DNA from: Nostoc sp.
GTDB lineage: Bacteria > Cyanobacteriota > Cyanobacteriia > Cyanobacteriales > Nostocaceae
Length of the DNA stretch: 32,000 bases
Direction: 5' to 3'
NCBI RefSeq assembly: GCF_036917195.1
Contig: NZ_JBALDG010000013.1
Coordinates: 95,885-127,884 of the forward strand
In this document: positions 1 to 19,342 of the stretch, piece after piece
Position numbering within the stretch: position 1 is the first letter of the stretch
Layout: each line of letters begins with the position of its first letter
Notes under the pieces: model-generated
Databases searched by the model: none
What the model was told of the DNA's origin: nothing
What the model saw: only the letters and a program-made list of their open reading frames with translations
Translations under genes and position numbers: made by a program

Positions 1-874
1 AATATACCAACGCTAAAACGCTGTGGATAGATACAGAAGTAGCTGACTACAAAAGTCGTAATCCCCGACTATCGCTGATTCAGGTATTAGATAATCCTCA
101 AGATATGAGTGGCGATCGCGTCTACCTTTTAGATGTCCTAGATAAGCCTAATATTATAGCTGAATTTATTGAAGAAATTATGATAAATTCTGCCATTGAA
201 AAAGTTTTTCACAATGCCAGTTATGATATAAAGCTTCTCGGTAACAAGAAAGCCAAAAATATTACTTGCACTCTGGAAATGGCAAAAAAATTCCTTACTA
301 TCTTTTGCCATTACCCAACTACCAACTCAAAACCATAGCTACAGCACTTTGTAGCTTTAACAATATCGACAAACAAGAACAAGAAAGCGATTGGGGAAAA
401 CGTCCCCTGACTGAAGAACAGATCGAGTATGCTTACTTAGATTGTATTTATCTTGCTCAAATCCACTTAAATTTGTTAGGATTACAAGCCCAAGCCAGCC
501 CCGAACCCACAACAGAAGACTTAATATCACTAAGTACTAGATACTCGCAACTTGAGCAGCAATGGAAGTTGTTGAATTCAGAATTTGAGCATTTGCAAGA
601 ACGTATAAAAAAAGCCATGCAGGCTCAGAATATATTGGAAACTTCTGATTATAAGCTGACTAGTTATGAGCGGACTACAGTCAAAGCTGCATTTACAGAA
701 TTGGCAAGACTAGCACAAACTCAAGGTATTAATTTAGATTTTCCAATCACACTAACTCAGAAACTCCAAAAAGATTTAGGGCAAAATCTGGAACAACTGT
801 CTGTAGATATTGACAAAACCACCTCTTGGAGGCTAACTCACAAAACTCAAGCGAGTGAAACTGAGGATGAGTAA
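1..874 (+). CDS. 3'-5' exonuclease, DEDDy family (RNase D / DNA Pol A exo-domain type); 5'-partial at window edge and frameshifted at an A7 run (possible pseudogene)
   Basis: The frame of ORF 105..338 stays open back to the window edge and reads ...TLWIDTEVADY (Exo I, DxE) and ...FHNASYDIKLL (Exo II). The frame of ORF 266..874 continues with ...EEQIEYAYLDCIYL (Exo III, Yx3D). The two frames meet at the run a284-a290. A -1 shift there gives a continuous ...CTLEMAKKIPYYLLPLPNYQLKTIA... protein. The C-terminal ~130 aa look coiled-coil-like. Confidence 0.75.
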
Positions 875-1953: not shown

Positions 1954-2250
1954 GCAAAAGCAGGGTTTTAGTTAAAAGCAGACAGACTGCCGAGTTATGT
2001 TATCAGATAACAATTTATTTGTCGTGTTATCAAATTAATGTCGTTAAACTTTTAAATTGATGGTGCATCAAGTGAGCGACACTAATGTGTTAAGGACGAC
2101 AAATAATTTTTTATTTTACAACTGCGCCTAGCGCAGATGAGAGTGCGATCACTGCCGAAAGTATAATTACTTATATAAATCCTAGTTGAATCTTGCTCAG
2201 TATAGTGAGAAAGAAACGGCGTTTCATAATGGTGGTATGAATTGAGGTAA

Positions 2251-2337: not shown

Positions 2338-2756
2338 TTTTGGACAACTTTTGTATCATTACCGCATCTATTACGCAGTACCTGCAATGGAGAGCGATGG
2401 CGATTCCACGTCAACCAAGAATGCGATCGCCTGACCCATCCAACCACTGCTCAATGGCCTTGAAAGGCTGTAATCCTTTCTTTCACAGCTTTTAGCTTTT
2501 CAAGCGTGCCATTCGCCTTTGACCTAGCTACTATTAATATTCGAGGAAAAATAAATTAATTATGTCCCTTTTAGATTATGTAATAATTGCCAAACTGTGC
2601 TGTAATAATGCTAGTTTGTAAAATAATAGTGAATATTCAAGATAAATTAAGCAACGAATTATTTGAAAAGCGTTGTTTAACTTCTTGAACTCAGAAAGAA
2701 GCTTGTATATTTAGAGATTCTTTCTAGTTGATACTAATTAAATTGAGGTTAAACAG

Positions 2757-3029
2757 ATGGGAAATCCAAAACTAGAGGATTTAGATAACGAACTAATTAG
2801 TTTTGATTTAAGTCCAGAAGATATGGAGGCAATCAAAGGTGGTACAAGTGTGCCAAAACCTATCTCGACTGGTAGTAACTGTCCATCCCCTCCGAAGCAC
2901 CCTTTTGGAATTCTAATCGTTGCAGAACCACCCAAGCACCCTTTTGGAATTCTAATCGTTGCAGTACCACCCAAGCGCCCTTTTACAATTACAATCGTTG
3001 CAGTACCACCCAAATGCAAGGATGATTAA
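2757..3029 (+). CDS. double-glycine-leader peptide precursor (bacteriocin/RiPP-like) with a triple-repeat core
   Basis: 90-aa ORF with GAGG 8 nt upstream of the ATG. Residues 18-29 (LSPEDMEAIKGG) match the LSxxELxxIxGG double-glycine leader consensus. The core is TSVPKPISTGSNC-PS-[PPKHPFGILIVAE][PPKHPFGILIVAV][PPKRPFTITIVAV]-PPKC-KDD. Confidence 0.7.
   Translation: MGNPKLEDLDNELISFDLSPEDMEAIKGGTSVPKPISTGSNCPSPPKHPFGILIVAEPPKHPFGILIVAVPPKRPFTITIVAVPPKCKDD
2889..3005 (+). repeat. 3 x 39-bp tandem direct repeat inside the precursor ORF (encodes the 13-aa units)
   Basis: Units lie at 2889..2927, 2928..2966 and 2967..3005. The first two are almost identical at the DNA level (ccaagcacccttttggaattctaatcgttgca); the third has diverged. 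Confidence 0.9.
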
Positions 3030-3161
3030 TCATTAAATTAAAAGATTAAGTTTAAGAGGATGTTTGAAAAGTCTAATTTATTACTAGCCCTGGCGACTAT
3101 AAATCGCGGTTACACGAGACTTTACCCACCTCTTTGGGTTTAAAACCCTTAATTTTTTATT

Positions 3162-3221
3162 AGTCCGCACATAGAGAAGTCTGAGCGCCGACTTCCGACG
3201 TTCAGAACTTCAAAGCGGACT
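3162..3221. repeat. hairpin-rich intergenic element (possible MITE / small dispersed repeat)
   Basis: Nested inverted repeats: agtccgc (3162..3168) pairs with gcggact (3215..3221), and gaagtc (3176..3181) pairs with gacttc (3190..3195). The flanks (gtttaaaaccc..., ...ctacgcgaagg) resemble Nostoc intergenic repeat families, but only one copy is in this window, so repetitiveness is unverified. Confidence 0.3.
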
Positions 3222-3386
3222 TCCCTGCGAGACCCTACGCGAAGGTTTATGTAATAGCGAATTATATTCGCCCAATACTTTTAAGGTTTGTATCTACACC
3301 TATGCTTTAATAGCTATGTGCTACTCATAATTATCCAATCAAGGATAGAAATTATACTAAATCTAGTTTTTTTTAAGATAAAATAT

Positions 3387-4172
3387 ATGAACAATGTTAG
3401 TGAGTTGGCGCTCAATTATCTACAACGTTATAACTGCCAGATTCTTGAAGATTATCAAAGTGTTTTGAGACAGGCTTGCGAAATTCATCCACCACCACAC
3501 GGTATGGCATGGTACGGTAATTCCTATCGTCAGTTTGCTCGTAATGCTGAATGGTTCTCTAATTCCCTGATTACTAACGTCGTTGAAGAAGGAACTGGTT
3601 CTAAACAAGTTTGGCAATTCTCCGAGCAGATCGAAAATCAGGAGTTTGCCCAGTTAGTGAGAAATCACTCTATTGATGAGTCACGCCACTCACTAATGTT
3701 TGTCGCACTGTTGAATATTATTTTTCCGACGAAAGTAGAAGCAGATTTCCGCACACAGTTAAAAGCTTTCTCTCCGCAATACTATCATCACAAGCATCCG
3801 CCCCTAATACCCATTTCTTCGGCTCAAATAATGGATGAAAAGTTAGTGATGGATGAGATTATTCAAATCAATCTCTTAGAAATTCGGGCATTGATCCTAC
3901 AATTATTGTTGCGTCCAGTACTGCAAGCATATGCTACACCTAATAACTTAGCAAAAGTAACTCGAATGTCTGATTTGTTGATTTTCGACGAGACTAAGCA
4001 TATTGAGTACTCTGGTTACTGTATTGGTAAGTACATTGAGCAAGGTCATGACTCTTGGGTGCGGGAAATGATGATTTACCGTCAAAAGACTATTAATGAA
4101 ATGTTTTTAGAAGATGTGGAATTAGCGGGTTCTGTTGGCACTACTATTTTACGGACACAAGATCGCTCGTAA
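3387..4172 (+). CDS. ferritin-like diiron-carboxylate oxygenase (AurF/CmlI-like family)
   Basis: The ORF track starts at TTG 3288; the first ATG at 3387 (MNNVSELALNYL...) is more plausible. The ligand set appears in the correct order: VVEEGTG (E), IDESRH (ExxH), LLEIRAL (E), FDETKH (ExxH). Confidence 0.65.
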   Translation: MNNVSELALNYLQRYNCQILEDYQSVLRQACEIHPPPHGMAWYGNSYRQFARNAEWFSNSLITNVVEEGTGSKQVWQFSEQIENQEFAQLVRNHSIDESRHSLMFVALLNIIFPTKVEADFRTQLKAFSPQYYHHKHPPLIPISSAQIMDEKLVMDEIIQINLLEIRALILQLLLRPVLQAYATPNNLAKVTRMSDLLIFDETKHIEYSGYCIGKYIEQGHDSWVREMMIYRQKTINEMFLEDVELAGSVGTTILRTQDRS

Positions 4173-4376: not shown

Positions 4377-5945
4377 TTACATCCCAGAACCAATGTGGAT
4401 GCGATCCTCAACTTCGGCAAATTTTTCCTGTGCCTGGTGTTCAGTAGTCAATAGGGAAACGACAATCGCCACTAGAAACGATAGAGGAATAGTAACTAAT
4501 CCAGGATTTTTTAGCCCAAAGGGTGCAGAAGCGTGCTTGAGAATTGTTACCTGAATAGTAGGTGAGAAATAAATCAGCAGTAACGAGGAGAAGGTACCCA
4601 CTAACATACTCGCAACCGCCCCGTTGGTGGTAAAGCGTCGCCAAAGCATTGATAAGAGCAACGCTGGAAAGTTGGCACTAGCAGCGATCGCAAATGCTAA
4701 ACCTACCATATAAGCGACGTTTTGTCCTTTAAACAAAATACCTAAGAGTATCGCCACTAACCCCAAAACCATTGTCGCACCGCGAGCTACCTTTAGTTGT
4801 TCTGACTCGTCAGCATGACCTGATCGCACCACGTTCACCCACAAATCGTGAGACAGTGCAGCGGCTCCTGAGAGTGTCAACCCAGCTACAACCGCCAAAA
4901 TCGTCGCAAAGGAAACAGCGGAAATAAAGCCTAACAAAGCATCACCACCGAGAAATTCTGCCAACATCGGTGCAGCCATGTTACCACCAGTCCCAATTTG
5001 CTTGATCGCATCTTGACCTACTAGCACCATTGCTCCAAAGCCCAGGATGAAGGTAAGGAGATAAAAAACGCCAATAATAGCTGTAGCATAAGTAACAGAG
5101 AGCCGCGCTGCTTTGGCGTCGGGTACTGTGTAGAAACGCATCAGGATGTGGGGTAGTCCAGCGGTGCCAAACATCAACGACATCCCCAAGGAGATAGCAT
5201 CAAAGGGATCAGAAACCTGTTTGCCCGGAGCTAATACACCTGGATACTTATCTGCGGCTGCGGCGAAAAGAGCGATCGGGTTAAAACCAAATCGTGCCAG
5301 TACCAAGATAGCTAGCAAGATAGTTCCGCCCAGCAACAGAACTGCTTTAATAATTTGTACCCAAGTGGTGGCAATCATCCCCCCAAAAATCACATAAGCC
5401 ATCATCACGCAACCGACGATCACCACGGCTAATTCATAATCAAAGCCAAACAGCAGTTTGATTAGCTCCCCAGCCCCTACCATCTGGGCAATTAAGTAAA
5501 AGCTAATCACTGCCAGCGTTCCAATTGCAGATGCGATGCGGACTGGTTTTTGTTGTAAGCGATAAGCCACCACATCAGCAAAGGTGTATTTACCTAAGTT
5601 ACGTAGTGGTTCTGCAATCAAAAACATCACAATCGGCCAGCCCACCAAAAAGCCAATAGAATAAATTAAGCCGTCAAAGCCGTTGAGTGCCACCAGCCCA
5701 GCGATACCTAAAAAGCTAGCTGCACTCATGAAGTCTCCTGCTAAGGCTAGCCCATTTTGGAAACCGCTGATTTTGCCGCCAGCTGTATAGAAGTGGGCAG
5801 TATTTTTGGTCAGCTTTGCCGCCCAAAAGGTAATGCCTAAAGAACTTGCAACAAACAGAAAAAAGAAAGCGATCGCCAACGGGTTAAACTTACCAAGACT
5901 GGTAATATCCGCCGCTAGTGGCAGATCGAACCACACACTATTCAT
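4377..5945 (-). CDS. actP: cation/acetate symporter ActP (sodium:solute symporter family)
   Basis: 522-aa polytopic membrane protein with an ActP-type N-terminus (...[37 protein letters not shown]...). It lies directly downstream of a DUF485 gene, as in yjcH-actP operons. Confidence 0.93.
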
Positions 5946-6671: not shown

Positions 6672-7811
6672 CTAATTCCAGGAATTTTTTCTGACTGATG
6701 AGAAATCCGGGGTAGGTCTTTTGCGATATTGCCACATCATAAAACCAGTGATAAATAAAATTAACGGCGCAAGTCCTACAAATACATAGAGAATGCGACT
6801 AGATAAGCCACCAAAAGTACCATAGTGTAGGGGAGTAAAGGAGTTGAGGATGCGATCGCCTAATAACGGTTTGAGGGCATTGTCCACTTGCAAAACCTTG
6901 CCGCTATACTGGTCGAGGTAGACATAGCTAATTCCATAATCGCCTATTTCTTCAGGAAATTTATAGCGAATCATCAAAGGGCTGTCTGGTTTTTGCGGAA
7001 AATAAACGCTTCTAAGTTCTGCACCAGGTAATTGAACTTGAGCGGTCTGAAGTTGCTCAGTAAGCTTTAAAGGAGACTGACCAGGGATATATTGAGAAAC
7101 AGGTTCTTGCTTTACACTAAAGGTAATTACCCGAATCACAGGCTCACTAAACTCACCAAAATTCCAGCAAAAACCTGTGAAAAATGTGAAAAAAAGAAAC
7201 ACACCTGCGATCACACCAGCAACTTTGTGAATATCAAAGTTCACTCGCTTGGGATGAGCATTCCACTTGATTTTAAAGCCTGCGAGTAAGTTCCTCCACC
7301 CAGGCCAGAGAAATATTCCTGTGATCGTCAGAATGCATACAAGTAAACCAACAGTACCAACAATTTTGTATCCAATGTCACCTACTAGCAGACTGTAGTG
7401 GAGTGCATAAATAATTTTGTAAAAGCGCTCTACAGGATTGGGATTAAGATTATTAACGAGAACTGCTCCTGTATAAGGATGAACGTAATTTTCAATCCAA
7501 TCATCTTTCTTGGTTACATAAACTACATCAAATGGTTCATCTGGTTTTGTCGGCACATAAACTCGATTGAGCTTAAAATCAGGCTGGCTGGCATAACTCT
7601 TTGTCACTGTATTCAGAACGACCTCTATTGGCAGCATTTCGCCTTTGGGAGTGATGCTTCCAATTTGAAAATGCTTTTGATAGGTAGTAATTTCGGATTG
7701 AAAAACCAGCAAGCTACCAGTTAAACCAATAATAATCGCAATCAGTCCAACACCTAACCCAATGTAGCGGTGTAAAGCAAATACGAAGTTACGCAGGGTT
7801 TTGTAAGTCAT
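6672..7811 (-). CDS. PepSY-associated TM-helix protein (PiuB/FoxB-like iron-regulated membrane protein), copy 1
   Basis: Hallmark N-terminal LHRYIGLGVGLIAIIIGLTGSLLVF and C-terminal PLHYGTFGG...[20 protein letters not shown]. The ATG at 7811 (MTYKTLRNF...) is preferred over the upstream start at 7847. Confidence 0.9.
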   Translation of the reverse strand: MTYKTLRNFVFALHRYIGLGVGLIAIIIGLTGSLLVFQSEITTYQKHFQIGSITPKGEMLPIEVVLNTVTKSYASQPDFKLNRVYVPTKPDEPFDVVYVTKKDDWIENYVHPYTGAVLVNNLNPNPVERFYKIIYALHYSLLVGDIGYKIVGTVGLLVCILTITGIFLWPGWRNLLAGFKIKWNAHPKRVNFDIHKVAGVIAGVFLFFTFFTGFCWNFGEFSEPVIRVITFSVKQEPVSQYIPGQSPLKLTEQLQTAQVQLPGAELRSVYFPQKPDSPLMIRYKFPEEIGDYGISYVYLDQYSGKVLQVDNALKPLLGDRILNSFTPLHYGTFGGLSSRILYVFVGLAPLILFITGFMMWQYRKRPTPDFSSVRKNSWN

Positions 7812-7836
7812 GGTAGATATTCGTACTAAATAAACG

Positions 7837-10518
7837 TCAAAGCTCAAACGAAATCGTTCCCAACACAGTCAACGGTGCTTGAGGAACGACGAAGTAGCCC
7901 TGAGTGTCGTAATATTTGACATCAAAGATATTCTTAAAGTTGAGCGCAGCCCGCCAATTATCATGTTTGTAGGAAATGGCAGCATCAGTTCTCAGATAAG
8001 AAGGAACAGTAAATGGATCACTCTGGTTAGCAATGCGCGAACCGACAAAAAAGATGCCTCCTCCAAACTGTAACCCTTTCAAACTCCCGTGTTGAATCTG
8101 ATATGTTGTCCACAGAGTTGCACCATTATATGCAGTATTTACCAAACGCTGACCTTTGATGGTCGGATCATTATCTTCGCTGACAAAGGCATCATTCAAA
8201 TAGCCAGAAGCAATGATCTTCCAACCTGGTAAAATTTCCCCTGCCAGATCTAGTTCAATTCCTCGACTTTTGACTTCCCCAATCGCGATGGAGAAGTCAG
8301 TATGGTTCGCGTCTGTAGTGGGTATATTTGTTTTAGTGATGTCATAGGCAGCTAGTGTTGCAGAAAGCCGTCGATCAAAAAACTCAGATTTGATACCAAC
8401 TTCGTACTGTGTACCGCGAGAAGGTTCCAGTGATACTCCACTAAACGTTGTCGCGTTGTTGGGAACAAAAGAACGGCTGTAACTGGCATAAAGCGAAATT
8501 GGCTCTATGGGTTGATAGACTAATCCCACACGTGGTGAGAAAGCACTGTCGTAAAAATTAGAGTTAGTGGTGTTTTCATCTCCGATTTTTGCACTGTTAT
8601 CGCTAAAAACAAAATCGTATCTACCACCAACCAATAACTTCAGATTGGATAGTAGAGTTACCTGGTCTTGCAAATAAACACCGATTGTGGAGATCCTCGT
8701 ACCGAATACACGTTGCACCACTGTCCCTGTCGGACGAGCACCATAGACTGGATTGAAAATATCTATTGAGGCGATATCACCACCAAAGAAGTTAGGATTA
8801 ATGTCTGTGTTGCGACGTAACTCCAAACCCAGCAGGAGTTGATGGGCAATTGAACCTGTGTTGAACTTACCAATTAAATCAGTTTGCCAGGAGTAGTCTT
8901 CATTTCTGCGATTGCGATTTACGATGATGTTGCCGCGCAGTGCACTACGACCGTCTGGTTCAAAGTCAGTACCGGCTTGGGTATAGATATTGTTGTCAAA
9001 CGTCGATTGCACAGAAAAAGAACTTCGCAATTGTAAATTCTCACTGAAGCGATGATCTACTGTCACGGTTCCCCGTTGGAAATCTATATTTAAAAAATCG
9101 CTAGGCTCTCCCAAGAAACGACTGATGGGAAGAGTCAGGAACACAGGTCCTGGTGGCAAACCGCGATCAAATGACCCACGTCGTCTGCCATATTCGTATT
9201 CAAAATTCAGGGTTGTATTTTCGCTGGGCTTGTAAGTGATTACAGGTGACACAGAGAAAATATCCTGATGATAGAAATCTCGGAAACTACCGGAATTTTC
9301 GTAGGCAACGTTCAAGCGATATAGTAATTTTTTGTCTGTGGTCAGTGGAGCAGAAAGGTCTATGGCACCTCGATAAAAACTGAAGCTCCCGGCGGTCAAT
9401 TCTGCTGCGTAGTAGGGACTGCTCAAGGGCTGCTTAGTGACAAAATTGATGACACCACCAGGCTCGACCTGACCGTATAGTACAGAGGAAGGACCTTTGA
9501 GAACTTCAACTCTTTCTACGTTGGCACCATAGGTGAAAAAGTTGCTGGTTGTGAAGCCATTTCTCAGAAGGTTGGAGTTGGTGAATCCTCGAATTGTGTA
9601 GTCATCAGAGAAACCACCGTAGCCCGATAAGGGTGATACTCCGGATACATTGCGGGTAGCATCGCTAATCCGCGTAATTTGCTGATCTTTAATCACCTGT
9701 TGCGGAATCACTTGAATCGACTGAGGAATGTCGCGTAACGGCGTATCGGTTCGGGTGGCAGTTGATGAATCGGGTACATTGTATCCGTCTTGCTCACCCG
9801 TCACCACTAACTCAATTGGCTCATCACCTTGTGTTGATGGTTTTGGCTGTATCTGATTCTCAGGCTGACTTGGTGGCTTTGGTTGCGTTTGAGGTTGTTG
9901 CACAGATGCAGCACTAGCGACCTCGAAGATTAGACCCTCATCTGGACTGTCTGATAACTCAACTGTTGGTACACTTCCCTCACCAATAACTGTCACCCGA
10001 ATTGTATTGACATCAAAGTTACTAACTGTTATTTCAGTAATACCTGCAATTGGTTTAGTCGAGCGGAATGTAAAGGCTTCACCCGACGGTAAACGCAGTT
10101 GAGTATTAGGAATATCTGCGATAAAGTTATTACCAGCACTGCGATTTATAACTTGCAACTGTTGCCCCTTAGTTGTCTGTAAAATTATCTCCACGCCTTG
10201 ATTCGTGGGATTGGCTTTCACTCCCATCACCTGTATAACTTCATTCCCTTGATTAAGGGGGTTGTTTGGTGTTGGCGACTGTACCAGTAACATTTGGGCG
10301 CTGGTAATAACAGGTTCTATTTCGCTTAGTTGTCGAATCTTTTTAGTTGTTTGAGGTAGCTTCGCTTCTTGTACTGTTTTCGTTGGAAGAAGCCGATTAA
10401 CCAATAAATCAAATTTAGAAATATCTTGCGCTTTCGCTGGCTGAACCACTAAAACTGTAAAAAGTATTAACAACGATTTCAGTCTGCAACTGAAGATTTT
10501 GAATATTCGCTTGCTCAT
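7837..10518 (-). CDS. TonB-dependent siderophore receptor with N-terminal AMIN domain (TBDT1)
   Basis: Signal peptide MSKRIFKIF...VVQPAKAQD. AMIN-like module VMGVKANPTNQGVEIILQT...IRVTVIGEGSVPTVEL, which resembles cyanobacterial PilQ AMIN repeats. P/Q-rich linker, then a plug (DEPIELVVTGEQD..., IRGF, VEVLKGPSSVLYG) and a beta-barrel ending in an aromatic residue context (...LTVLGTISFEL). Confidence 0.95.
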   Translation of the reverse strand: MSKRIFKIFSCRLKSLLILFTVLVVQPAKAQDISKFDLLVNRLLPTKTVQEAKLPQTTKKIRQLSEIEPVITSAQMLLVQSPTPNNPLNQGNEVIQVMGVKANPTNQGVEIILQTTKGQQLQVINRSAGNNFIADIPNTQLRLPSGEAFTFRSTKPIAGITEITVSNFDVNTIRVTVIGEGSVPTVELSDSPDEGLIFEVASAASVQQPQTQPKPPSQPENQIQPKPSTQGDEPIELVVTGEQDGYNVPDSSTATRTDTPLRDIPQSIQVIPQQVIKDQQITRISDATRNVSGVSPLSGYGGFSDDYTIRGFTNSNLLRNGFTTSNFFTYGANVERVEVLKGPSSVLYGQVEPGGVINFVTKQPLSSPYYAAELTAGSFSFYRGAIDLSAPLTTDKKLLYRLNVAYENSGSFRDFYHQDIFSVSPVITYKPSENTTLNFEYEYGRRRGSFDRGLPPGPVFLTLPISRFLGEPSDFLNIDFQRGTVTVDHRFSENLQLRSSFSVQSTFDNNIYTQAGTDFEPDGRSALRGNIIVNRNRRNEDYSWQTDLIGKFNTGSIAHQLLLGLELRRNTDINPNFFGGDIASIDIFNPVYGARPTGTVVQRVFGTRISTIGVYLQDQVTLLSNLKLLVGGRYDFVFSDNSAKIGDENTTNSNFYDSAFSPRVGLVYQPIEPISLYASYSRSFVPNNATTFSGVSLEPSRGTQYEVGIKSEFFDRRLSATLAAYDITKTNIPTTDANHTDFSIAIGEVKSRGIELDLAGEILPGWKIIASGYLNDAFVSEDNDPTIKGQRLVNTAYNGATLWTTYQIQHGSLKGLQFGGGIFFVGSRIANQSDPFTVPSYLRTDAAISYKHDNWRAALNFKNIFDVKYYDTQGYFVVPQAPLTVLGTISFEL

Positions 10519-10539
10519 TTTTCTCTCACACACCACAAT

Positions 10540-10570
10540 ATCCCAGATCACAACAATCTTGATTTGGGAT
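10540..10570 (-). promoter_or_regulatory. 11-bp imperfect inverted repeat in the TBDT1 leader (operator or 5'-UTR hairpin)
   Basis: atcccagatca (10540..10550) and tgatttgggat (10560..10570) are complementary at 10 of 11 positions, with a 9-nt spacer. The repeat ends 22 nt upstream of the TBDT1 ATG. Confidence 0.35.
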
Positions 10571-10639
10571 TTATTATCAACAGCATACGGGAATCTCTAG
10601 TGAAAAATTCGAGCTAAGTATATGCCGAAACGGATTTTT

Positions 10640-11668
10640 TTAGGTATTTTTGGCAACAATAAATCTATCTAAGTATTGACTAGGTTGGATGTCAAAGCGC
10701 TTTTTAAAAGCCACTGCGAAACGACTAGGACAGTCGTAACCCACTATCTTAGCTACCTGTTTTATGGTCATTTGCTGACTCATGATTAGTGTTCTAGCTT
10801 TTTCCATCCGGTATGCCCATAAATAGCCAAATACTGTTGTGTTAAAAACCTGACGGAACCCGATTTTCAGCTTGTAATCGTTCAAACTTACTTTTCGCGC
10901 CAATTCTAGCAACGAGGGTGGATTGTCAAAATCGGAGATTAAAATTGCTCTGGCATGGTAAATTCGGTCAATATCATCTCCTCGCAAAATGCGCGATCGC
11001 ATCAATTCCCGTTCCCCAGATGTATCGGGTTCCAACTTCAAAGCCATTAATTCTAGACACTTGGCTTGCAAGTAAATTTCTTTAATTAAACCTTGGAAAG
11101 GACAATTAACTATTTGATGCAAAATAATTTGCATTTCCGGTGTAGTTTGCCCGATGCGGAAGTAGTTGAGAAAGGATATATTGTCAGTTTCTAGATACAA
11201 CTGGAGTGATTTGGGTAGAAAGTCTAAGCCACTAACTTCATCTCTGCAAAAGAATTCCTGTGGATTGATCCCAATCTCTACCTCCAGAATGCGTTGACCT
11301 GCCCGCCAATAAGATCCACTACCAGGAATTTCCTTATCCAAATCAAAATAAGTTGCAGTGAAATTTTTTCCTCCAGGTATCATTTCTGACTCATTGTCTC
11401 CGATAACTGCAAAACTAAACTCCATTAAGGGAAGGTTATATGCCTCTGTCTCAACAATTAAATCTTCGGCTAAGTCGTACTGTTTTAGTAGTAAGTTGAT
11501 ACCTGTAGGGAAAGCCATTACGTGGTAATAACCCTGACTTTGCTGTTTTGGATCGTCCAACACTGCTAAATACCCAGTATTATATGAGTTGGTTTTTGTA
11601 GGTTCAGAGGTTAGAGTAGTATTTTGCTGTTGGTGATAGGCTTCTCTTGCTGAAAGAAACAGAGTCAT
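10640..11668 (-). CDS. AraC-family transcriptional regulator (PchR/YbtA-like siderophore-responsive type), copy 1
   Basis: 342 aa. The C-terminal double HTH reads ...PPSLLELARKVSLNDYKLKIGFRQVFNTTVFGYLWAYRMEKARTLI...IKQVAKIVGYDCPSRFAVAFKKRF. It lies immediately upstream of the receptor gene. Confidence 0.9.
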   Translation of the reverse strand: MTLFLSAREAYHQQQNTTLTSEPTKTNSYNTGYLAVLDDPKQQSQGYYHVMAFPTGINLLLKQYDLAEDLIVETEAYNLPLMEFSFAVIGDNESEMIPGGKNFTATYFDLDKEIPGSGSYWRAGQRILEVEIGINPQEFFCRDEVSGLDFLPKSLQLYLETDNISFLNYFRIGQTTPEMQIILHQIVNCPFQGLIKEIYLQAKCLELMALKLEPDTSGERELMRSRILRGDDIDRIYHARAILISDFDNPPSLLELARKVSLNDYKLKIGFRQVFNTTVFGYLWAYRMEKARTLIMSQQMTIKQVAKIVGYDCPSRFAVAFKKRFDIQPSQYLDRFIVAKNT

Positions 11669-11835
11669 TTTTGTGATTTATTGATATTTTCTCCTAATTA
11701 TCATATAGTTGGTTGTTTGGGTGGTAGTAATGCGATCGCCTATCTGCCCTACAACAAGACAAAATTTAAATATTTTTACACAGGTTCTTGCTTGAAAGTA
11801 AAGGCGATCGCTCTAATCATAGGTACAGTCAAAAC

Positions 11836-11862
11836 TTAGTTACGCAGACTTTTGATAGTCAT
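11836..11862 (-). pseudogene. 8-codon stump of a deleted PepSY gene downstream of TBDT2
   Basis: The minus strand reads ATG ACT ATC AAA AGT CTG CGT AAC TAA (MTIKSLRN*). This aligns with the PepSY1 start MTYKTLRNF, and the spacer to the TBDT stop is also conserved (compare 11863..11887 with 7812..7836). Homology ends after codon 8. Confidence 0.6.
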
Positions 11863-11887
11863 GGTAGATATTCCTGCAAAATAAAGG

Positions 11888-14548
11888 TCAAAACTCAAAC
11901 GAAATCGTTCCCAACACAGTCAAGGGTGCTTGAGGAAAGAGGTAGTAGCCATTCGTGTCGTAATATTTGACATCAAAGATATTCTTAAAGTTGAGCGCAG
12001 CCCGCCAATTATCACGTTTGTAGGAGATTGCGGCATCAGTTCTGACGTAAGAAGGAATAGTAAAGGGATCACTCTGATAGGCAATGCGCGAGCCGACAAA
12101 AAAGATACCTGCACCAAACTGTAATCCTTGCAAGTCACCCTTTTGAATTTCATAGGTTGTCCATAAAGAAGCGCCATGATAAGCTGAATTTTCCAGTCTG
12201 CTTCCTACTGGAATGCTGTTATCCTTGCTCACAAATGCATCATTCAAATACCCAGAAGCAATAATCTTCCAACCTGGTAAAATTTCTCCTGCTACATCCA
12301 GTTCAATCCCTCGACTTTTTACTTCTCCCACTGCGATTGAGAAGTCGGTATTGTTAGGGTCTGTTGTGAGTATGTTTGTTTTAGTAATATCATAGGCGGC
12401 TAGCGTTGCCGAAAGCCGTCGCTCAAAAAGCTCAGATTTTATACCAACTTCGTACTGTGTACCGCGAGAAGGTTCGAGTATTTCTCCACTAGCCGTTCTG
12501 CCAGTGTTGGGAACAAAGGAACGGCTGTAACTAGCATAGAGCGAAATCGGCTCTATGGGTTGATAGACTAATCCCACACGGGGCGAAAAGGCATTACCGT
12601 TAAACTCAGAGCTATTGATGTCTCCACCTAATGGTCTTGTACTATTGACGCTATCAACAAAATCGTATCTACCACCAACCAGCAACTTCAAATTAGATAG
12701 TAGGGTTACCTGGTCTTGCAAATAAAGACCTAGTGTGTCGGTTTTGCCAGAATAATAAGTAGCATTTTCTAAGGTTGTAGGACGGCCAGCACCATAGACA
12801 GGATTGAAAATATCGATTAAGCCAGTACTATAGTTATAGTTAGATAAAAGACCAGGTGGTGATGTGTTTCGACTCAACTCCAAACCTAGCAGGAGTTGAT
12901 GGGCAATTGAACCAGTATTGAACTTACCAATTAAATCATTTTGCCAGGAGTAGTATTTAGTGAGGAGATCGTCGTTTACTGAGTAGTCGCGCTGCAAAGT
13001 ACGACCATCTGATTGAATGCTGTCAATGTTGACATAGGCACTGTTATCAACGAACGATTGGAAAAAAAGAGCGCTTCGCAGTTGTAAACTTTTGCCGAAA
13101 TGCTGATCCAGCGTTAAAGATGCGCGATGATAGTCTAGATTGTTAAAGTCATTAGGCTCTCCGAAGTTGCGAGTGATGGGAAGCGTCAGAACGGGGTTAT
13201 TCGGTGGAAAGGCGCGATCAAATCCTCCACGTCGTCTACCATACTGGTATTCAAAAGTGAGAGCTGTGTTTTCGCTAGGCTTATAAGTGATGACAGGGGA
13301 CACAGTGAAATTATCGTAATTATAGAAATCCCGGTAACTGCCGGAATTCTCGTAAGCAACATTCAAGCGATAGAGTAATTTTTTGTCGGTGGTGAGTGGT
13401 CCAGAAAAGTCGATGGTACCCCTATAAAAACTGAAACTACCTGCTGTAAATTCTGCTGCATAGTAGGGATCGCTCAAGGGTTGCTTAGTCACATAATTGA
13501 CGACACCGCCCGGTTCAATCTGACCATACAATACAGAGGCAGGACCTTTAAGAACTTCAACTCTCTCTACACTGGCTGTAGCTGGAGGATAGCTGTCGGT
13601 TTTGAAACCATTTGTCAGAATGTTGTAGTTGGTAAATCCTCGAATCGTGTAGATATCAAATGCATTGGCAAAGCCTGTTAACGGGGACACGCCGGACACA
13701 TTGCGGGTCGCATCGCTAATCCGCGTGATTTGCTGGTCTTTGATTACCTCTTGCGGGATAACTTGAATCGATTGGGGAACATCACGTAGAGGTGTATCGG
13801 TTCTGGTAGCAGTTGATGAATTTGTGACACGATAATTATCTTGTTCGCCAGTCACCACTAACTCAATCGGCTCATCACCCGAAGCTGATGGTTGAGTTGG
13901 TTGTGTCTGATTCTGTGGCTGACTAGTTTGGGGTGGTTGTGTTTGCGGTTGCTGCTGTGATGGTGTGGGTGATGCCGCGCTGGCGACAGAGAAAATTATC
14001 CCCTCATCTGGACTATCAAACAACTCCACAACTGGCTGACTCACTTGGCCTGTGACTATTACCCTGATAGTATTGGCATCAAAGTTTGTCACCGTGATTT
14101 CGCTAACACCCGCTATTGGTTTATCTGAGCGAAACGTAAACGCATCGCCCGACGGGAGGCGCAATTGGGCATTTGGAATATCAGTGATAAAATTATTACC
14201 ACTAGAGCGATTTACTAGCGGCAACTGTTGTCCCTTAGATGTCTGTAAAATTACCTCTACACCTTTATCGGTGGGGTTTGCTTTGACTGCTGTAACTTGC
14301 ACAATTTCTGATGTGGGTGTTGGCGACTGCACTAATAACATGCGAGCACTAGTCAAAACAGGTTCTATCTCACTTAATTGCCTAATCCTCTTATTTGCAT
14401 TAGTTGCTGGGATCATCTGAGGTAAGCTCCGATTTTCTCGGTTGTTTGTCAGATTCTGGCTAGGACTAATTTCTTGTGCTGATACAGTCTGTCCAAAAAA
14501 CACTGACACTAAAGTAGCCACCAACAATGGCAGTTGCAAATTCCACAT
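11888..14548 (-). CDS. TonB-dependent siderophore receptor with N-terminal AMIN domain (TBDT2, paralogue of TBDT1)
   Basis: 886 aa with signal peptide MWNLQLPLLVATLVSVFFGQTVSAQE. It has the same AMIN / PQ-linker / plug / barrel layout as TBDT1. Long stretches are near-identical to TBDT1 at the DNA level, especially at the 3' end (11888..12040 versus 7837..7990). Confidence 0.95.
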   Translation of the reverse strand: MWNLQLPLLVATLVSVFFGQTVSAQEISPSQNLTNNRENRSLPQMIPATNANKRIRQLSEIEPVLTSARMLLVQSPTPTSEIVQVTAVKANPTDKGVEVILQTSKGQQLPLVNRSSGNNFITDIPNAQLRLPSGDAFTFRSDKPIAGVSEITVTNFDANTIRVIVTGQVSQPVVELFDSPDEGIIFSVASAASPTPSQQQPQTQPPQTSQPQNQTQPTQPSASGDEPIELVVTGEQDNYRVTNSSTATRTDTPLRDVPQSIQVIPQEVIKDQQITRISDATRNVSGVSPLTGFANAFDIYTIRGFTNYNILTNGFKTDSYPPATASVERVEVLKGPASVLYGQIEPGGVVNYVTKQPLSDPYYAAEFTAGSFSFYRGTIDFSGPLTTDKKLLYRLNVAYENSGSYRDFYNYDNFTVSPVITYKPSENTALTFEYQYGRRRGGFDRAFPPNNPVLTLPITRNFGEPNDFNNLDYHRASLTLDQHFGKSLQLRSALFFQSFVDNSAYVNIDSIQSDGRTLQRDYSVNDDLLTKYYSWQNDLIGKFNTGSIAHQLLLGLELSRNTSPPGLLSNYNYSTGLIDIFNPVYGAGRPTTLENATYYSGKTDTLGLYLQDQVTLLSNLKLLVGGRYDFVDSVNSTRPLGGDINSSEFNGNAFSPRVGLVYQPIEPISLYASYSRSFVPNTGRTASGEILEPSRGTQYEVGIKSELFERRLSATLAAYDITKTNILTTDPNNTDFSIAVGEVKSRGIELDVAGEILPGWKIIASGYLNDAFVSKDNSIPVGSRLENSAYHGASLWTTYEIQKGDLQGLQFGAGIFFVGSRIAYQSDPFTIPSYVRTDAAISYKRDNWRAALNFKNIFDVKYYDTNGYYLFPQAPLTVLGTISFEF

Positions 14549-14589
14549 ATTTTCCTCACACCAAGATAATTAAGCAGGCGTTAGCAACA

Positions 14590-14607
14590 GAGCAAATATT
14601 TTTGCTC
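14590..14607 (-). promoter_or_regulatory. perfect 7-4-7 inverted repeat in the TBDT2 leader (candidate operator)
   Basis: gagcaaa-tatt-tttgctc, AT-rich, about 42 nt upstream of the TBDT2 ATG. It differs from the repeat in the TBDT1 leader. Confidence 0.3.
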
Positions 14608-14737
14608 ATTAGTCGAGAAAGCTTCTCAAATTGCTCTTGGTAGTACAATACAGGATTTCAATCAAAAAAATGGCTCCCAAACGGAATTTTTTTGCGCCAT
14701 AATTGGAACTTAGGAGTAGATTTATACAGTAAGAGGT

Positions 14738-15715
14738 CTAAATATTCTTTTGCGTTTGATATGCTTTGGGATTTATGCCGTATTTTTTCCTAAATGCACT
14801 CGCAAATCGACTGCGGTTAACATAACCAACTATTTGAGCGACTTGTTCAATTTTCATTTGCCCTGACAGCAGTAATTGCCTGGCTTGTTCCATGCGATAG
14901 TCGTGTAAGTAACCAAACACTGTAGTCCCAAAAATTTGACGAAACCCGCGTTTAAGAGTGTATTCGTTAATACCCACTTGTCGAGCTAGATCGATTAATG
15001 AAGGTGGATTACAGATATTTCTTAGTAAAATCTCTCTGGCGTGATGGATGCGATCAATTTCTTGAAGCCGTAACAGCTTTTCTGTTGGCGCTGCTACTCG
15101 ATCTGCTAGCTTGAGGGAAACCAATTCTAGCACTTTGCTCTCGAGATACATTTTGCGTGTTAGTCCCTGATAAGGACAATGAAGAATCTGCTGAAGCGCG
15201 ACTTGTTTGGCTGGGGTAATTAGACTAGGACGTAGATTAAAATATTCTGGTACACCTGCGATCGCCTTTTCCAAATCTTTTGGTACTTGTTCTCCATAAC
15301 TTTCGATCAACGTCAAGAGTGTTTCTGGCTTAATTATCAAACTCACCCACCTCAGATTACCTGCTCCATCAATGTTGTTATTCGATTGTGGATACACACC
15401 GCCAAAAATATAGTCTTCTCCTGACTTTTTTGGTTGTCCATCACAATCTTGTCCCAATCCAGCTAAAGTGAATCCAAATTCTAAACTATTTTGGTGATGG
15501 GCATGAGTGATCCACTTGATTGACTGCGGCAAATAGGTTTCAAGAATTTCGATGAGAATGCCTTCACGCAGCGGTATCCAGCGATAATAGCCTTCGCCCA
15601 GTTCTTGAGGATACCGACAAAGACGATCTTCTTGATGGATTGGATCGATTAGGAGTTGTGGATTTGCTGCTTTCCTCAAATCCCAAAAATCATATACCGT
15701 GATGTTAATTGTCAT
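14738..15715 (-). CDS. AraC-family transcriptional regulator, copy 2
   Basis: 325 aa. The C-terminal HTH pair reads ...PPSLIDLARQVGINEYTLKRGFRQIFGTTVFGYLHDYRMEQARQLL...IEQVAQIVGYVNRSRFASAFRKKYG. It is a paralogue of copy 1 and lies upstream of TBDT2. Confidence 0.9.
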   Translation of the reverse strand: MTINITVYDFWDLRKAANPQLLIDPIHQEDRLCRYPQELGEGYYRWIPLREGILIEILETYLPQSIKWITHAHHQNSLEFGFTLAGLGQDCDGQPKKSGEDYIFGGVYPQSNNNIDGAGNLRWVSLIIKPETLLTLIESYGEQVPKDLEKAIAGVPEYFNLRPSLITPAKQVALQQILHCPYQGLTRKMYLESKVLELVSLKLADRVAAPTEKLLRLQEIDRIHHAREILLRNICNPPSLIDLARQVGINEYTLKRGFRQIFGTTVFGYLHDYRMEQARQLLLSGQMKIEQVAQIVGYVNRSRFASAFRKKYGINPKAYQTQKNI

Positions 15716-15897
15716 CGTGTGTGTACTATGCGATCGCCGTTGTTTAGATATATTACATCTGTGCGATCGCTATCTTCATACTTGCATCAAGTTGAAAAAT
15801 TACTAGAATAATTGAATTTGTAAAAAAAACAAGGTGCAGAATTTGAGAAAAAGACTGAACTAGTGCTGAACGCAGCTAAACCAATATTATCGCCGCT

Positions 15898-16065
15898 GTT
15901 TATTGAATTCGGGCAGTCGTTTATTGAATTCGGGCAGTTGTTTATTGAATTCGGGCAGTTGTTTATTGAATTCGGGCAGTTGTTTATTGAATTCGGGCAG
16001 TCGTTGATTGAATTCGGGCAGTCGTTTATTGAATTCGGGCAGTCGTTTATTGAATTCAGGCAACC
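15898..16065. repeat. 8-unit tandem array of a 21-bp repeat (gtttattgaattcgggcagtY), each unit containing a GAATTC site
   Basis: Units start at 15898, 15919, 15940, 15961, 15982, 16003, 16024 and 16045 (the last is degenerate). The only variation is c/t at unit position 21 and one t>g change. There are no spacers. A solitary gtttattgaa occurs at 20831..20840. Confidence 0.95.
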
Positions 16066-16352
16066 ACCAAGAATTCACGGAAAGTAATTTATTGCTAATT
16101 TCTCGCCCTCTCTAAAACGGGAGCATCCCAAATGTGCAAAATGCCCTTAGATGTCTTAGCAGAATTAATTTTCACTTTTATGTCTATTTATAATTGCGAT
16201 CGCTAGGTCAAAAACTTACACAAATTGTGCATAGCTGTAAGATTTACGTATCCATTTTATGATGGGCTGTATTTAGGGTGGTGCAGTAATGCCTACGCAA
16301 CTTACCGACTAGAGATATAAATTTGATGTTGGGGAGCCAGTGTGTTAGATTT

Positions 16353-16385
16353 AGATCCCCGAATCCTTGAACAAGTCGGGGATCT
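16353..16385. repeat. GATCCCCGA...TCGGGGATC hairpin repeat, copy 1
   Basis: agatccccga (16353..16362) and tcggggatct (16376..16385) form a perfect 10-bp stem. The same stem sequence recurs at 28231..28263. Confidence 0.6.
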
Positions 16386-16435
16386 GGGCGGCAACTTTTG
16401 CTTAAGTAAGTGCCATTCTACCCTACGGACTGCTG

Positions 16436-17165
16436 TTAAAACTGCACAGAAACTGTTCCTAGCACTGTCAACGGCGCAGCGGGATAAACACTGAGTGTAC
16501 TAGTGGCACTTTCAAAGTAGTAGGTATCAAACAAGTTCTTAATGTTTAACCCCACACGCCAGTTATCTCGCCGATAATAAAGGGCAGCATCCACGCGGGC
16601 ATAACTGGGTAAGGTGAATATATTTCCTAAATCACCCTGCCTGTCGCCCACAAATGTAACACCGCAACCAAATCCAGACCCTTTCCAGCCTCCGGTTTGA
16701 TAATTCATAGGTTGTCCATAAAGAAGCACTGTTACGGGACACATTATTAGGTATATTTCCCTTAAAATCAGGATTGGTATCTTCAGTGATTTCAGGATCA
16801 ATGTAGGTATAGCTCCCAATAATTTTCCATCCCGGCAAGATTTCTCCGGCGATATCAAACTCAATGCCACGGCTACGCTGTTCACCCACTTCAATGCTGA
16901 ATCCTGGATTGTCTGGATCGCTAACGATAATGTTTTGCTTGGTGATTTGATACGCCGCCAGGGTTGCAGCTAATTTACCATCCAAAAACTCGGTCTTGAC
17001 TCCCACTTCAAAGGCTTCACCCGTGGTGGGTTTAAACGGGCTGTTGTCTGTATTGACACTGAAGGGACGAGAGGGTTGGAAGGAGCGACTGTAACTGGCA
17101 TACAGAGAAACAGGGGGAATGGGTTGATACACAATCCCCACACGCGGATAGGTAGTATGGTTTCT
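16436..17165 (-). pseudogene. C-terminal ~240 codons of a third TonB-dependent receptor, 5'-truncated and frameshifted
   Basis: ORFs 16632..17141 and 16436..16894 together read ...YPRVGIVYQPIPPVSLYASYSRSF...SRGIEFDIAGEILPGWKIIGSY...SASLWTTYEL / QTGGWKGSGFGCGVTFVGD...AAPLTVLGTVSVQF. A 1-nt shift near 16700 separates them. Homology to the receptor stops near 17165. Confidence 0.85.
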
Positions 17166-17263
17166 TAGGGGAGCAAGCGGCTACGCAGCTAATACAACAA
17201 GGCAAAAGTTAAAAGAAAGAATCAAGATTGTGCAAACATTTTACTTATTTGGTGGTGGTAGTT

Positions 17264-17430
17264 TTATTTACGCCTTGCTGTACCAGGTTTTTCCGATAGC
17301 GATACCACCACATCACAAAACCACTAACAAACAAAATTAACGGTGCAAGTCCAACGAACACATAGAGAATGCGAGTAAGCAAGCCGCCAAATGTGCCGAA
17401 GTGTAGGGGAGGAAAAGAATTGAGAATGCG
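17264..17430 (-). pseudogene. C-terminal ~55 codons of a PepSY gene (fragment)
   Basis: The minus strand reads ...[55 protein letters not shown], which matches the C-termini of PepSY1 and PepSY3. There is nothing upstream of it. It is misplaced between two receptor fragments. Confidence 0.75.
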
Positions 17431-17620
17431 TAGCCGCTTTGCGGCTTGTCGCTAGACATCGCCTAATTGATACTTCAATCAAGTTGAAAAATTGCCAAAA
17501 TAATTAAGGTGTAGGGTTGTGTTGGTTTGGAATGTTTCGCGCTGTGCGCTGATCGCACTCACGTACAGAATTGATGGACAGAAACTTTGCTAAGGGAACT
17601 CCCTCAAACTTGGTTAGGTA

Positions 17621-17647
17621 GCGATGTCTACGACGGGCTACGCCTAC
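17621..17647. repeat. 27-nt dispersed repeat gcgatgtctacgacgggctacgcctac (copy 1)
   Basis: This is the exact reverse complement of 23095..23121. A diverged relative (tagccgctttgcggcttgtcgctagacatcgcc) lies at 17431..17463. The repeat abuts the truncation point of the AMIN-only ORF. Confidence 0.85.
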
Positions 17648-17649
17648 GC

Positions 17650-18213: not shown

Positions 18214-18394
18214 AGCTCTACACACCATGATCGCAGATTTGCAAAACAGTTGCAAGTAAATTTCGATAACTTTTAGGTAGAATAGGGCATTTTCTGATTT
18301 CAGGTGATCTCTACAGGGTCATTTGCGATCGCTAGCCGGACTTTTTTGCCACTGTGCTTATATCTGTTCTATTGAAGCGATCGCCTTCCTACCT

Positions 18395-19099: not shown

Positions 19100-19185
19100 T
19101 TGCCAATCCTTGAAGTTGCCGGATACTTTTGACTTTAGCAAACCTCTTGTGCAGGTTGGCTAAATCATGCCATCTATTTGCTTTT

Positions 19186-19342
19186 AATACGCTTTTGGAT
19201 TTACACCGTATTTTTTTCTAAACGTACTAGCAAAGCGACTGCGGTTTGCATAACTAACTTTTTGAGCGACTTGTTCAATTTTCATTTGCCTTGACAGCAG
19301 TAATTGCCTAGCTTGTTCCATGCGATAGTCGTGTAAGTAACC
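19186..19342 (-). pseudogene. 3' end of a third AraC regulator gene joined directly to its own upstream region (internal deletion of about 800 bp)
   Basis: 19186..19342 aligns almost base-for-base with the last ~160 nt of AraC copy 2 (about 14750..14915). The following 19343..19410 aligns with the sequence just upstream of the AraC copy 2 start codon (15716..15770). The start codon and most of the gene are missing. Confidence 0.8.

Follow-up and report, generated by a model that had tools for sequence, protein, structure and literature searches.

A stretch of 32,000 nucleotides from Nostoc sp. (contig NZ_JBALDG010000013.1, positions 95,885 to 127,884 of the forward strand), referred to below as the window, carries a gene for a repeat-built peptide of 90 amino acids (2757..3029, forward strand) and, downstream on the same strand, a gene for a predicted ferritin-like diiron-carboxylate protein of 261 amino acids (3387..4172). 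Together they probably form a leader-dependent cassette for a ribosomally synthesized peptide with post-translational modifications (RiPP), in which the diiron enzyme would oxidize each repeat of the core and an unlinked C39-type exporter would remove the leader at G28-G29. We give this reading a probability of roughly two in three. A broader proposal goes further and is put at only slightly better than even odds: that the pair represents an undescribed RiPP class spread over at least seven phyla, in which a ferritin-like diiron oxidase recognizes an ISFDL box in the leader and oxidizes every repeated core, with two genes being enough to make up the cassette in Nostoc.

The precursor gene was delimited by open reading frame (ORF) calling and translation, and is supported by 14 Nostoc homologues and by a leader hidden Markov model (HMM). 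It encodes 90 amino acids plus a stop codon, the full translation being MGNPKLEDLDNELISFDLSPEDMEAIKGGTSVPKPISTGSNCPSPPKHPFGILIVAEPPKHPFGILIVAVPPKRPFTITIVAVPPKCKDD. A Shine-Dalgarno GAGG lies at 2745..2748 on the forward strand, 8 nt before the ATG, as the earlier note on this DNA had read it, and is invariant in the orthologue alignment. Residues 1-29 (2757..2843) constitute the leader, which is defined by conservation and selection and ends in the double glycine G28-G29 (2838..2843); residues 18-29 read LSPEDMEAIKGG and leave a core of 61 amino acids. The positions of a double-glycine leader are occupied by hydrophobic I26 (-4), M23 (-7) and L18 (-12) and by acidic D22 at -8, and S15 at -15 deviates. 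Behind the double glycine comes a variable linker (residues 30-44, TSVPKPISTGSNCPS, 2844..2888), which holds a Nostoc-specific cysteine, C42, followed by three 13-residue core repeats of the form PPK(H/R)PF-x-I-x-IVA-x (residues 45-83) and a terminal PPK (2889..3014). The three units are PPKHPFGILIVAE, PPKHPFGILIVAV and PPKRPFTITIVAV, encoded at 2889..3005, and Tandem Repeats Finder reports the array at 2895..3013 with a period of 39 bp, 3.1 copies, 92% matches and a score of 196. The 61-residue core of three units with a fourth PPK, built from 39-bp repeats, is thus as the earlier note described it. Its net cationic character (7 K/R vs 3 D/E) and the bracketing of the repeats by the sole two cysteines of the peptide, C42 and C87, were also described correctly. 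The disulfide staple that had been proposed on this basis is rejected, because about half of the Nostoc orthologues have Ser in place of C87; C42 is invariant within Nostoc, and is absent from Brasilonema, Scytonema, Calothrix and the other precursors outside the genus.

Conservation among close relatives establishes that the precursor gene is real and under selection. A protein search across 5.8 billion proteins returned 14 homologues, all from Nostoc and 72-91 amino acids long, and comparison of the DNA found the ORF intact in every one of the 14 orthologous Nostoc loci, so that no close relative disrupts it. Residues 11-31 (NELISFDLSxEDMEAIKGGTS), which include the double glycine of the leader, are almost wholly invariant among these homologues, and the C-terminal part differs between them in its sequence and in how many repeats it has: three core copies are found in six orthologues, two in seven, and about 1.5 in one. 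The ratio of nonsynonymous to synonymous differences per site (pN/pS) over leader codons 10-31 is 0.11, with a pS of 0.137. Over codons 32-39, the eight codons past the double glycine, it reaches 1.96 at a pS of about 0.14, as in the leader. The enzyme gene gives a pN/pS of 0.18. The double-glycine type of leader claimed earlier is thus favoured, by purifying selection on the leader and by a hypervariable, repeat-built core behind the GG. On a wider scale, I14, F16, L18, E21, I26 and G28 are invariant in a set of 26 cyanobacterial and myxobacterial precursors. The precursor matches no Pfam or NCBIfam family above threshold, nor do its relatives of other clades match an NCBIfam family, which agrees with the earlier view that the core belongs to no characterized class. 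The sole NCBIfam match of the precursor is weak (TIGR03893, lichenicidin A2 leader, E=0.048, 14 bits vs a 33-bit cut-off).

The strongest evidence for a system of two genes is their pairing across distant bacteria. The diiron gene is the next same-strand gene after the precursor gene, with a gap of 357 bp, and had been singled out as a candidate tailoring gene about 360 bp downstream. Through the enzyme alignment, 74 loci were fetched from a one-genome-per-species collection, and 70 of these had the 300 bp or more of upstream sequence needed for counting. A small same-strand ORF stands directly upstream of the diiron gene in 69 of the 70, the exception being locus L074, and in every cyanobacterial locus with upstream sequence this is a GG-leader ORF immediately 5' of the diiron gene. 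The paired loci span at least seven phyla. The cyanobacterial hosts are Nostoc, Brasilonema, Scytonema, Calothrix, Richelia, Stigonema, Rhizonema, Iningainema, Microseira and Moorena; the Myxococcota are represented by Hyalangium, Archangiaceae, Sorangium, Nannocystaceae and Paraliomyxa, and the Proteobacteria by Burkholderiales, Pseudoduganella, Noviherbaspirillum, Dyella, Bradyrhizobium and Xanthobacteraceae. Further loci belong to Acidobacteria, Rokubacteria/Methylomirabilota, Actinobacteria and Eremiobacterota-type metagenome-assembled genomes (MAGs).

The pairing holds in both directions. A leader HMM built from 33 upstream ORFs was searched against six-frame translations of all loci, about 0.9 Mb of sequence, and its matches are confined to the upstream ORFs; within the window the precursor ORF is the single match (E=3e-17). 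In the reverse search, a profile of 26 precursors led to 62 peptides. The two of these that were traced, P0120 and P0104, are each followed by a diiron homologue (43% and 54% identity), and about 10 more appear to share contigs with listed diiron matches. All neighbours other than the precursor and the diiron gene change between clades. The enzyme clades also track the class of core: median enzyme identity within a core class is 53-81% in four of the five classes and 41% in the small mixed FAIRN class, compared with 33-51% between classes. Judged by this co-location, 69/70 forward and 2/2 traced in reverse, and by the match of enzyme clade to core class, the candidacy of the diiron gene as the functional partner of the precursor gene is strongly upheld.

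The precursors themselves sort into five core classes, and most cores are tandem-repeated. Class (i) is cyanobacterial and consists of aromatic-x-I-x-I-x-A units, such as FPIRIVA, YPIKISP and IIIKAPPI; this unit is common to the Nostoc repeats, whose form is PF-G-I-L-I-VA-V-PPKH, and to the precursors of other cyanobacteria. Class (ii) carries GGFAIRNHALNL in 1-3 copies, class (iii) the heptad F(V/T/I)ACN(A/S)(A/P) in 3-6 copies, and class (iv) AY(D/E)(A/P)CNA in 4-9 copies, and class (v) has a single FVA(L/R/K)NAPF or F-x-x-W-N-C-P-(F/Y). In nearly all classes an aromatic residue heads each core unit, usually after P, G or A. In a cross-class alignment, four of the five classes have one leader element in common, (P)I(S/T)F(D/E/K)L; behind it come a run of acidic residues and then ..A(I/L)x..GG. 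In the window peptide this is the ISFDL box (residues 14-18, 2796..2810), and clades with a different GG region retain the box as well. Since the diiron protein is the only partner common to the core classes, we infer that the ISFDL box is a putative recognition element, at which the diiron enzyme would dock. Other partners are specific to clades: a JmjC_2 hydroxylase gene follows the enzyme in the FAIRNH (GGFAIRNHALNL) clade, the FxACNxx clade has genes for S-adenosylmethionine (SAM) methyltransferase and GNAT, and the single-core clade has one for an IucA/IucC-FhuF ligase. The Nostoc cassette consists of the precursor and diiron genes only.

The product of 3387..4172 is best described as a divergent ferritin-like diiron oxidase and a putative maturase, an assignment drawn from its invariant ligands, an AlphaFold2 (AF2) model and a family profile. 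Nine residues, E68, H94, D97, E98, H101, E165, D201, E202 and H205, do not vary among 23 homologues, the most distant of which has 32% identity, and the ligand motif reads E68, H94-x3-E98-x2-H101, E165 and E202-x2-H205. An N-terminal block is equally invariant in the same homologues (P36, P37, Y43, G44, Y47, R48, plus W56), where the window protein reads PPPHG..WYG..YR. The AF2 model is all-helical, with a mean per-residue confidence (pLDDT) of 88.6 and a predicted template modelling score (pTM) of 0.87. It places E68 in helix 54-79, E98 and H101 in helix 85-112, E165 in helix 151-182, and E202 and H205 in helix 188-218, with a long connection joining the second and third ligand helices. Four ligand groups on four long helices therefore point to a ferritin-like diiron-carboxylate arrangement. 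The profile of the family, compared with solved structures, finds relatives only among ferritin-like proteins of the R2-like ligand-binding oxidase (R2lox) and R2 kind, the best being the R2lox 7qbk (E=2.3e-4). A fold like that of the heme-oxygenase-like diiron oxidases (HDOs) is less favoured. The spacing H94-x3-E98-x2-H101 recalls the HxxxDxxH of HDOs, but the second ExxH, on the fourth helix, fits the ferritin-like pattern better.

In Pfam and NCBIfam the diiron protein falls in no specific curated family, whether ribonucleotide reductase (RNR) R2 (PF00268), R2lox (NF006200) or AurF. Pfam Ribonuc_red_sm PF00268 scores it below threshold (E=0.0024, 17.7 bits vs a 33.6-bit cut-off), and the R2lox model NF006200 gives 12.4 bits vs a 194-bit cut-off. 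A phmmer search of the enzyme against the PDB returned noise only. Its own family is small and discrete, because a full HMM scan returned 303 matches at E<=1e-3 among 1.84 billion cluster representatives, 116 of them at E<=1e-30; a word-indexed search had given 62 homologues.

Taken together, these observations suggest the following course of events. The 90-residue product would be the precursor peptide of a minimal two-gene cassette (2757..3029 and 3387..4172). Its leader, chiefly the (P)ISF(D/E)L box, would dock onto the ferritin-like diiron oxidase, which would then use O2 on every copy of the core unit, this being aromatic-x-I-x-I-x-A in Nostocales. The aromatic residue at the head of each unit, or a position adjoining it, is the likeliest site, and the outcome would be hydroxylation or an oxidative side-chain cross-link. 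This chemistry is proposed because of two analogies, the Tyr-Val cross-link of R2lox and the hydroxylation of an FRF motif by MNIOs (oxidative enzymes that depend on multinuclear non-heme iron), and as a specific prediction it is tentative and rather doubtful. Finally, cleavage at the double glycine would take off the leader, and an unlinked C39-type ABC exporter would secrete the cationic, hydrophobic product. Export of the precursor by such a peptidase-containing ABC transporter (PCAT) is plausible. A possible alternative for the last steps is release of the repeats by oxidative backbone cleavage, carried out by the same enzyme; it is considered because no protease is linked and the repeats abut directly in several classes.

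Several points weigh against this reading. None of the loci has a linked protease or exporter, and the maturation as described is for this reason incomplete. In none of 76 loci does an ORF of 480-1100 amino acids with both a Walker A motif and LSGGQ lie within about 6 kb. The preference for a ferritin-like over a heme-oxygenase-like diiron assignment comes from motif spacing and one profile match. The structural matches are weak: Foldseek against the PDB gave no match below E=0.09 for the diiron model, the best having E=0.095 and the TM-scores being 0.44-0.53, with the nitrile synthase AetD on top (8ji5, 8twt) and bacterioferritin, R2 and toluene monooxygenase also among the matches. The AF2 model of the enzyme is devoid of beta strands, and hence of a canonical RiPP recognition element (RRE), which leaves leader binding by the enzyme as a step that we infer. 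The Asn found in all non-cyanobacterial cores (F-x-x-x-N-x-P-F) is Ile in Nostoc-type cores; the chemistry may therefore differ by clade or target another position. Lastly, synteny among close Nostoc strains is expected from kinship alone, and the argument from pairing consequently depends on the distant loci.

The main rival is a precursor of the scaffold or cofactor type. Here the diiron enzyme would oxidize residues of the repeats, and their excision or further elaboration would yield a small molecule in several copies, as in the pathways of pyrroloquinoline quinone (PQQ), mycofactocin or the pearlins. The cores outside cyanobacteria lend themselves to this, being short, almost invariant and spacer-free (FVACNAP x3-6, AYDACNA x4-9, single FVALNAPF), and their partner genes are of a small-molecule type (IucA/IucC ligase, GNAT, SAM methyltransferase), with no protease linked. 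The Nostoc core behaves otherwise: it is hypervariable, with a pN/pS of about 2 past the GG and a varying number of repeats and residues, which fits a diversifying bioactive peptide, and its GG leader suggests export of a peptide. A scaffold is accordingly more plausible for the invariant ACN/NAPF cores than for the diversifying Nostoc cores, and as an explanation of the two window genes we consider it unlikely.

Less probable still is an unmodified class II-type bacteriocin or signalling peptide, exported by an unlinked PCAT, with the diiron gene serving a separate role in immunity, regulation or metabolism. The double-glycine pattern and the weak match to the lichenicidin A2 leader would suit such a peptide, some homologues are labelled 'bacteriocin-like protein' by the Joint Genome Institute (JGI), and the Nostoc window offers no other tailoring, protease or exporter gene. 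Against this, the pairing persists across at least seven phyla while the other neighbours change, the enzyme clades follow the core class, the ISFDL box is retained where the GG region differs, and a soluble diiron protein of 261 amino acids is not a typical immunity protein. It is very improbable that the peptide, instead of being a substrate, assists the diiron enzyme as an accessory subunit, effector or metallochaperone, much as small regulatory components do in multicomponent monooxygenases. In favour of such a role are the strict adjacency and the conserved N-terminal segment, a plausible site of enzyme binding, but the C-terminal two-thirds are hypervariable and of low complexity, shift in copy number between close strains and differ wholly between clades, and in Rhizonema and Iningainema two tandem precursors serve one enzyme. 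A spurious ORF created by the 39-bp tandem repeat in non-coding DNA has practically no chance of being correct and is already refuted: the same repeat does open an antisense ORF of 93 amino acids (2738..3019), recovered in only 7 loci, yet the forward-strand ORF is intact in every orthologue, its leader is under strong purifying selection and it can be detected by HMM across phyla.

With the leader-dependent, diiron-tailored RiPP as the preferred reading, its resemblance to known systems can be considered. Class II bacteriocins and cyanobacterial GG peptides share with the precursor a short leader ending in GG, hydrophobic residues at -4, -7 and -12, an acidic residue at -8 and a cationic hydrophobic core. 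They differ in that here no C39/ABC exporter or immunity gene is found in the window or within about 6 kb in 76 loci, that position -15 is Ser, that the conserved element is the ISFDL box, which lies outside the classical GG consensus, and that an oxidase is adjacent. Multi-core precursors of cyanobacterial RiPPs, such as cyanobactins and microviridins, carry one leader and several tandem cores in strain-variable number. The Nostoc precursor likewise has one leader and strain-variable tandem core copies, but lacks pairs of recognition sequences and proteases, an ATP-grasp enzyme or a heterocyclase, and its repeats abut or are joined via PPK(H/R)P. Membership of the lanthipeptides was rejected, as Pfam scans found no LanM, LanB, LanC, LanKC or LanL synthetase gene in the window, and one conserved Cys is present in the Nostoc core and none in other genera. 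The Nif11/NHLP leader families were rejected as well, the leader being 29 rather than about 70-80 amino acids long and without an NCBIfam match; true Nif11-type precursors stand beside the cassette only in loci L032 and L033, as distinct ORFs.

Among enzymes, the multi-iron RiPP enzymes known to us are the MNIOs, which adopt a TIM barrel. In biphenomycin-like pbs/bpm clusters, an MNIO ortho-hydroxylates the Phe residues of the motif FRF, and the basic residue beside them is the target of a JmjC/cupin hydroxylase (PMC12257519). The likeness lies in an O2-dependent multi-iron enzyme that acts on a short aromatic/Arg motif, and the GGFAIRNHALNL clade here pairs its diiron gene with JmjC_2 in a comparable way. 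Yet the present system has no DUF692/TIM-barrel protein and no RRE partner protein, its precursors are unrelated, and its enzyme is a predicted ferritin-like E/ExxH/E/ExxH bundle. Membership of the MNIO (DUF692) family was thus rejected, there being no Pfam or NCBIfam DUF692 match and the model being an all-helical bundle.

R2lox, RNR R2 and AurF/CmlI resemble the enzyme in that their E, ExxH, E and ExxH ligands sit on four long helices, and R2lox 7qbk is the best profile match. The extra invariant His one turn before the first ExxH presumably creates a set of three His and four carboxylates like that of AurF/CmlI. R2lox forges a Tyr-Val ether cross-link in a polypeptide. Nevertheless, identity to these proteins is far below family level, the Foldseek TM-score does not exceed 0.53, and the conserved N-terminal extension of about 50 residues (PPPHG..WYG..YR) has no counterpart there. 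We know of no member of R2lox, R2 or AurF/CmlI that takes a leader-bearing ribosomal peptide as its substrate, and the literature searched brought none to light. HDOs, including AetD, a nitrile synthase from cyanobacteria, likewise belong to natural-product pathways and are helical diiron enzymes; AetD acts on an aromatic amino acid and gives the top Foldseek hits. That match is not significant (E>=0.095, TM 0.44), and HDO ligands are placed on three helices, in contrast to the four helices that each contribute here. The substrates of HDOs are free amino acids or lipids and not leader peptides.

RiPP classes are defined by the chemistry of their maturases, and the metalloenzymes known as tailors of ribosomal peptides are few, namely radical SAM, P450, MNIO, 2-oxoglutarate (2OG)/HExxH and BURP/Cu enzymes. 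No description of a precursor-diiron system was found in the open full-text literature (subscription-only papers being outside its scope) or in a genome-mining review. Because of this, and because no Pfam or NCBIfam model covers either protein, the system would join RiPP logic to an unprecedented maturase superfamily and precursor family. If this is true, ferritin-like diiron-carboxylate oxidases are added to the metalloenzyme superfamilies that tailor ribosomal peptides. The system is also tractable, with two genes, a substrate of 90 amino acids, target sites in triplicate and about 300 natural enzyme/substrate pairs with distinct cores. The ISFDL leader box together with an E/HxxxExxH/E/ExxH protein provides a handle for genome mining, which marks clusters missed by the scanned Pfam and NCBIfam models in myxobacteria, Burkholderiales, Acidobacteria and lichen- or plant-associated Nostoc. 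The putative Nostoc products are cationic, rich in Ile/Val and under diversifying selection, as is typical of peptides that serve antagonism or signalling in symbiotic communities.

The DNA around the two genes offers some indications of regulation. The region upstream of the precursor gene (2560..2756, forward strand) shows 84-93% identity across orthologues by blastn, and an alignment of 12 Nostoc loci has long invariant blocks from about 2578 to the ATG. These roughly 200 nt vary less than synonymous sites do, and this suggests that they hold a regulated promoter or 5' untranslated region (5'UTR). No sigma-70 consensus promoter was found there in a consensus scan. The region contains a near-palindrome, ACTTCTTGAACT, at 2680..2691, which is a perfect palindrome, AGTTCTTGAACT, in most orthologues and could be the binding site of a regulator. 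Rfam at a permissive threshold gave no riboswitch or leader RNA around the precursor gene, only miRNA-like hairpin noise at 1987..2136. This stretch, between the TPR gene and the precursor gene, is a long hairpin with sub-threshold matches to miRNA precursors (E=0.005); it is indel-prone among Nostoc orthologues and is probably an inverted repeat resembling a miniature inverted-repeat transposable element (MITE).

Of the spacer that separates the precursor gene from the enzyme gene (3030..3386), all orthologues keep just the initial 50 nt or so and the final 70-100 nt or so. Its middle (3080..3310) is replaced or expanded among Nostoc genomes, and the whole spacer ranges from about 200 to 670 bp. 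In this indel-prone middle a consensus scan marks a weak terminator-like hairpin on the forward strand (3136..3158), GGGTTTAAAACCC with a 5-bp stem, then a T-run, which may act as an attenuator between the two genes.

In the rest of the window, Pfam scans of the ORFs of at least 90 amino acids revealed no Peptidase_C39/ABC exporter, LanM, YcaO, radical SAM or ATP-grasp gene, in agreement with the earlier note, which had reported the window to be free of a C39 transporter, LanM, cyclodehydratase, radical SAM and ATP-grasp. The adjacent TPR, exonuclease and ActP/DUF485 genes were rejected as partners, being syntenic only within Nostoc. The exonuclease gene (105..874, DNA_pol_A_exo1, 3'-5') is split into overlapping ORFs in different frames (105..338 and 266..874) and is a single ORF of 306 amino acids in the Nostoc loci L001 and L002, which suggests a frameshift, a pseudogene or a sequencing error. 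A block of minus-strand genes at 6672..21040 looks like an iron-uptake island. It holds PepSY_TM proteins (6672..7847, 19482..20669), TonB-dependent receptors with AMIN domains (7837..10551, 11888..14548) and AraC-type regulators (10640..11668, 14738..15715). A third receptor is apparently broken into an AMIN fragment (17650..18255) and a C-terminal barrel fragment (16436..16894), and a Uma2 nuclease lies at 18395..19141. As a part of the system the island (6.6-21 kb) was rejected, since it is absent from the otherwise syntenic L001 and L002, and for the same reason it looks inserted; in these two loci the LPG-synthase/esterase genes come almost directly after the DUF485 gene. Towards the end of the window, a protein of 135 amino acids (28464..28871) has Agenet/Tudor-knot/chromo-like matches, typical of eukaryotes, with E down to 5.5e-10. 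It adjoins an NB-ARC plus TPR protein of STAND type (29532..32000), which runs past the window end.

Cassettes in other genomes show further arrangements. Head-to-tail heptads are found in L043 (5516..5752), L045 (5680..5991), L057 (2169..2480) and L064 (5413..5931), with FVACNSP x5, F(V/T)ACNAP x4 and AY(E/D)(P/A)CNA x8-9. The hosts of such heptad arrays are Proteobacteria, Acidobacteria, Myxococcota and Moorena; a SAM methyltransferase gene is the usual downstream neighbour, at times accompanied by a GNAT gene. The group L058-L078 (e.g., L059 5679..5975 and L071 5683..5973) has single-core precursors that end in ...RFVALNAPFKRRSP. Its cassettes combine the diiron gene with an IucA/IucC-FhuF-type ligase, downstream of a large regulator of about 840-1180 amino acids, which has an adenylate/guanylate-cyclase domain where scanned; their product may not be a peptide but a small molecule derived from one. 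Two differing GG-leader precursors stand in tandem before one diiron gene in L035, L037 and L041 (Scytonema, Rhizonema and Iningainema), one with the core ...WHFQFPITCVV... and the other with ...RRIFPIVITVVPPQK.PWYIIIT.... In L032 (5267..5605), a Nostocales MAG related to L033, and in L033 itself (5248..5604 and 9507..9839), Stigonema ocellatum, Nif11-leader precursors with cores such as PLYGVITWPPIHPQPQPLYGIVV adjoin the diiron gene and its GG-leader precursor. Next come genes for a radical SAM protein and an APH-like kinase, and two RiPP systems appear to have merged. In the Moorena loci L062 and L063 (5430..6360) the precursor is kept, and the diiron gene matches residues 1-119 only, after which an ORF of 1610 amino acids runs on the opposite strand. 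This cassette looks decayed, and Moorena bouillonii has a complete ACN-type cassette elsewhere (L046).

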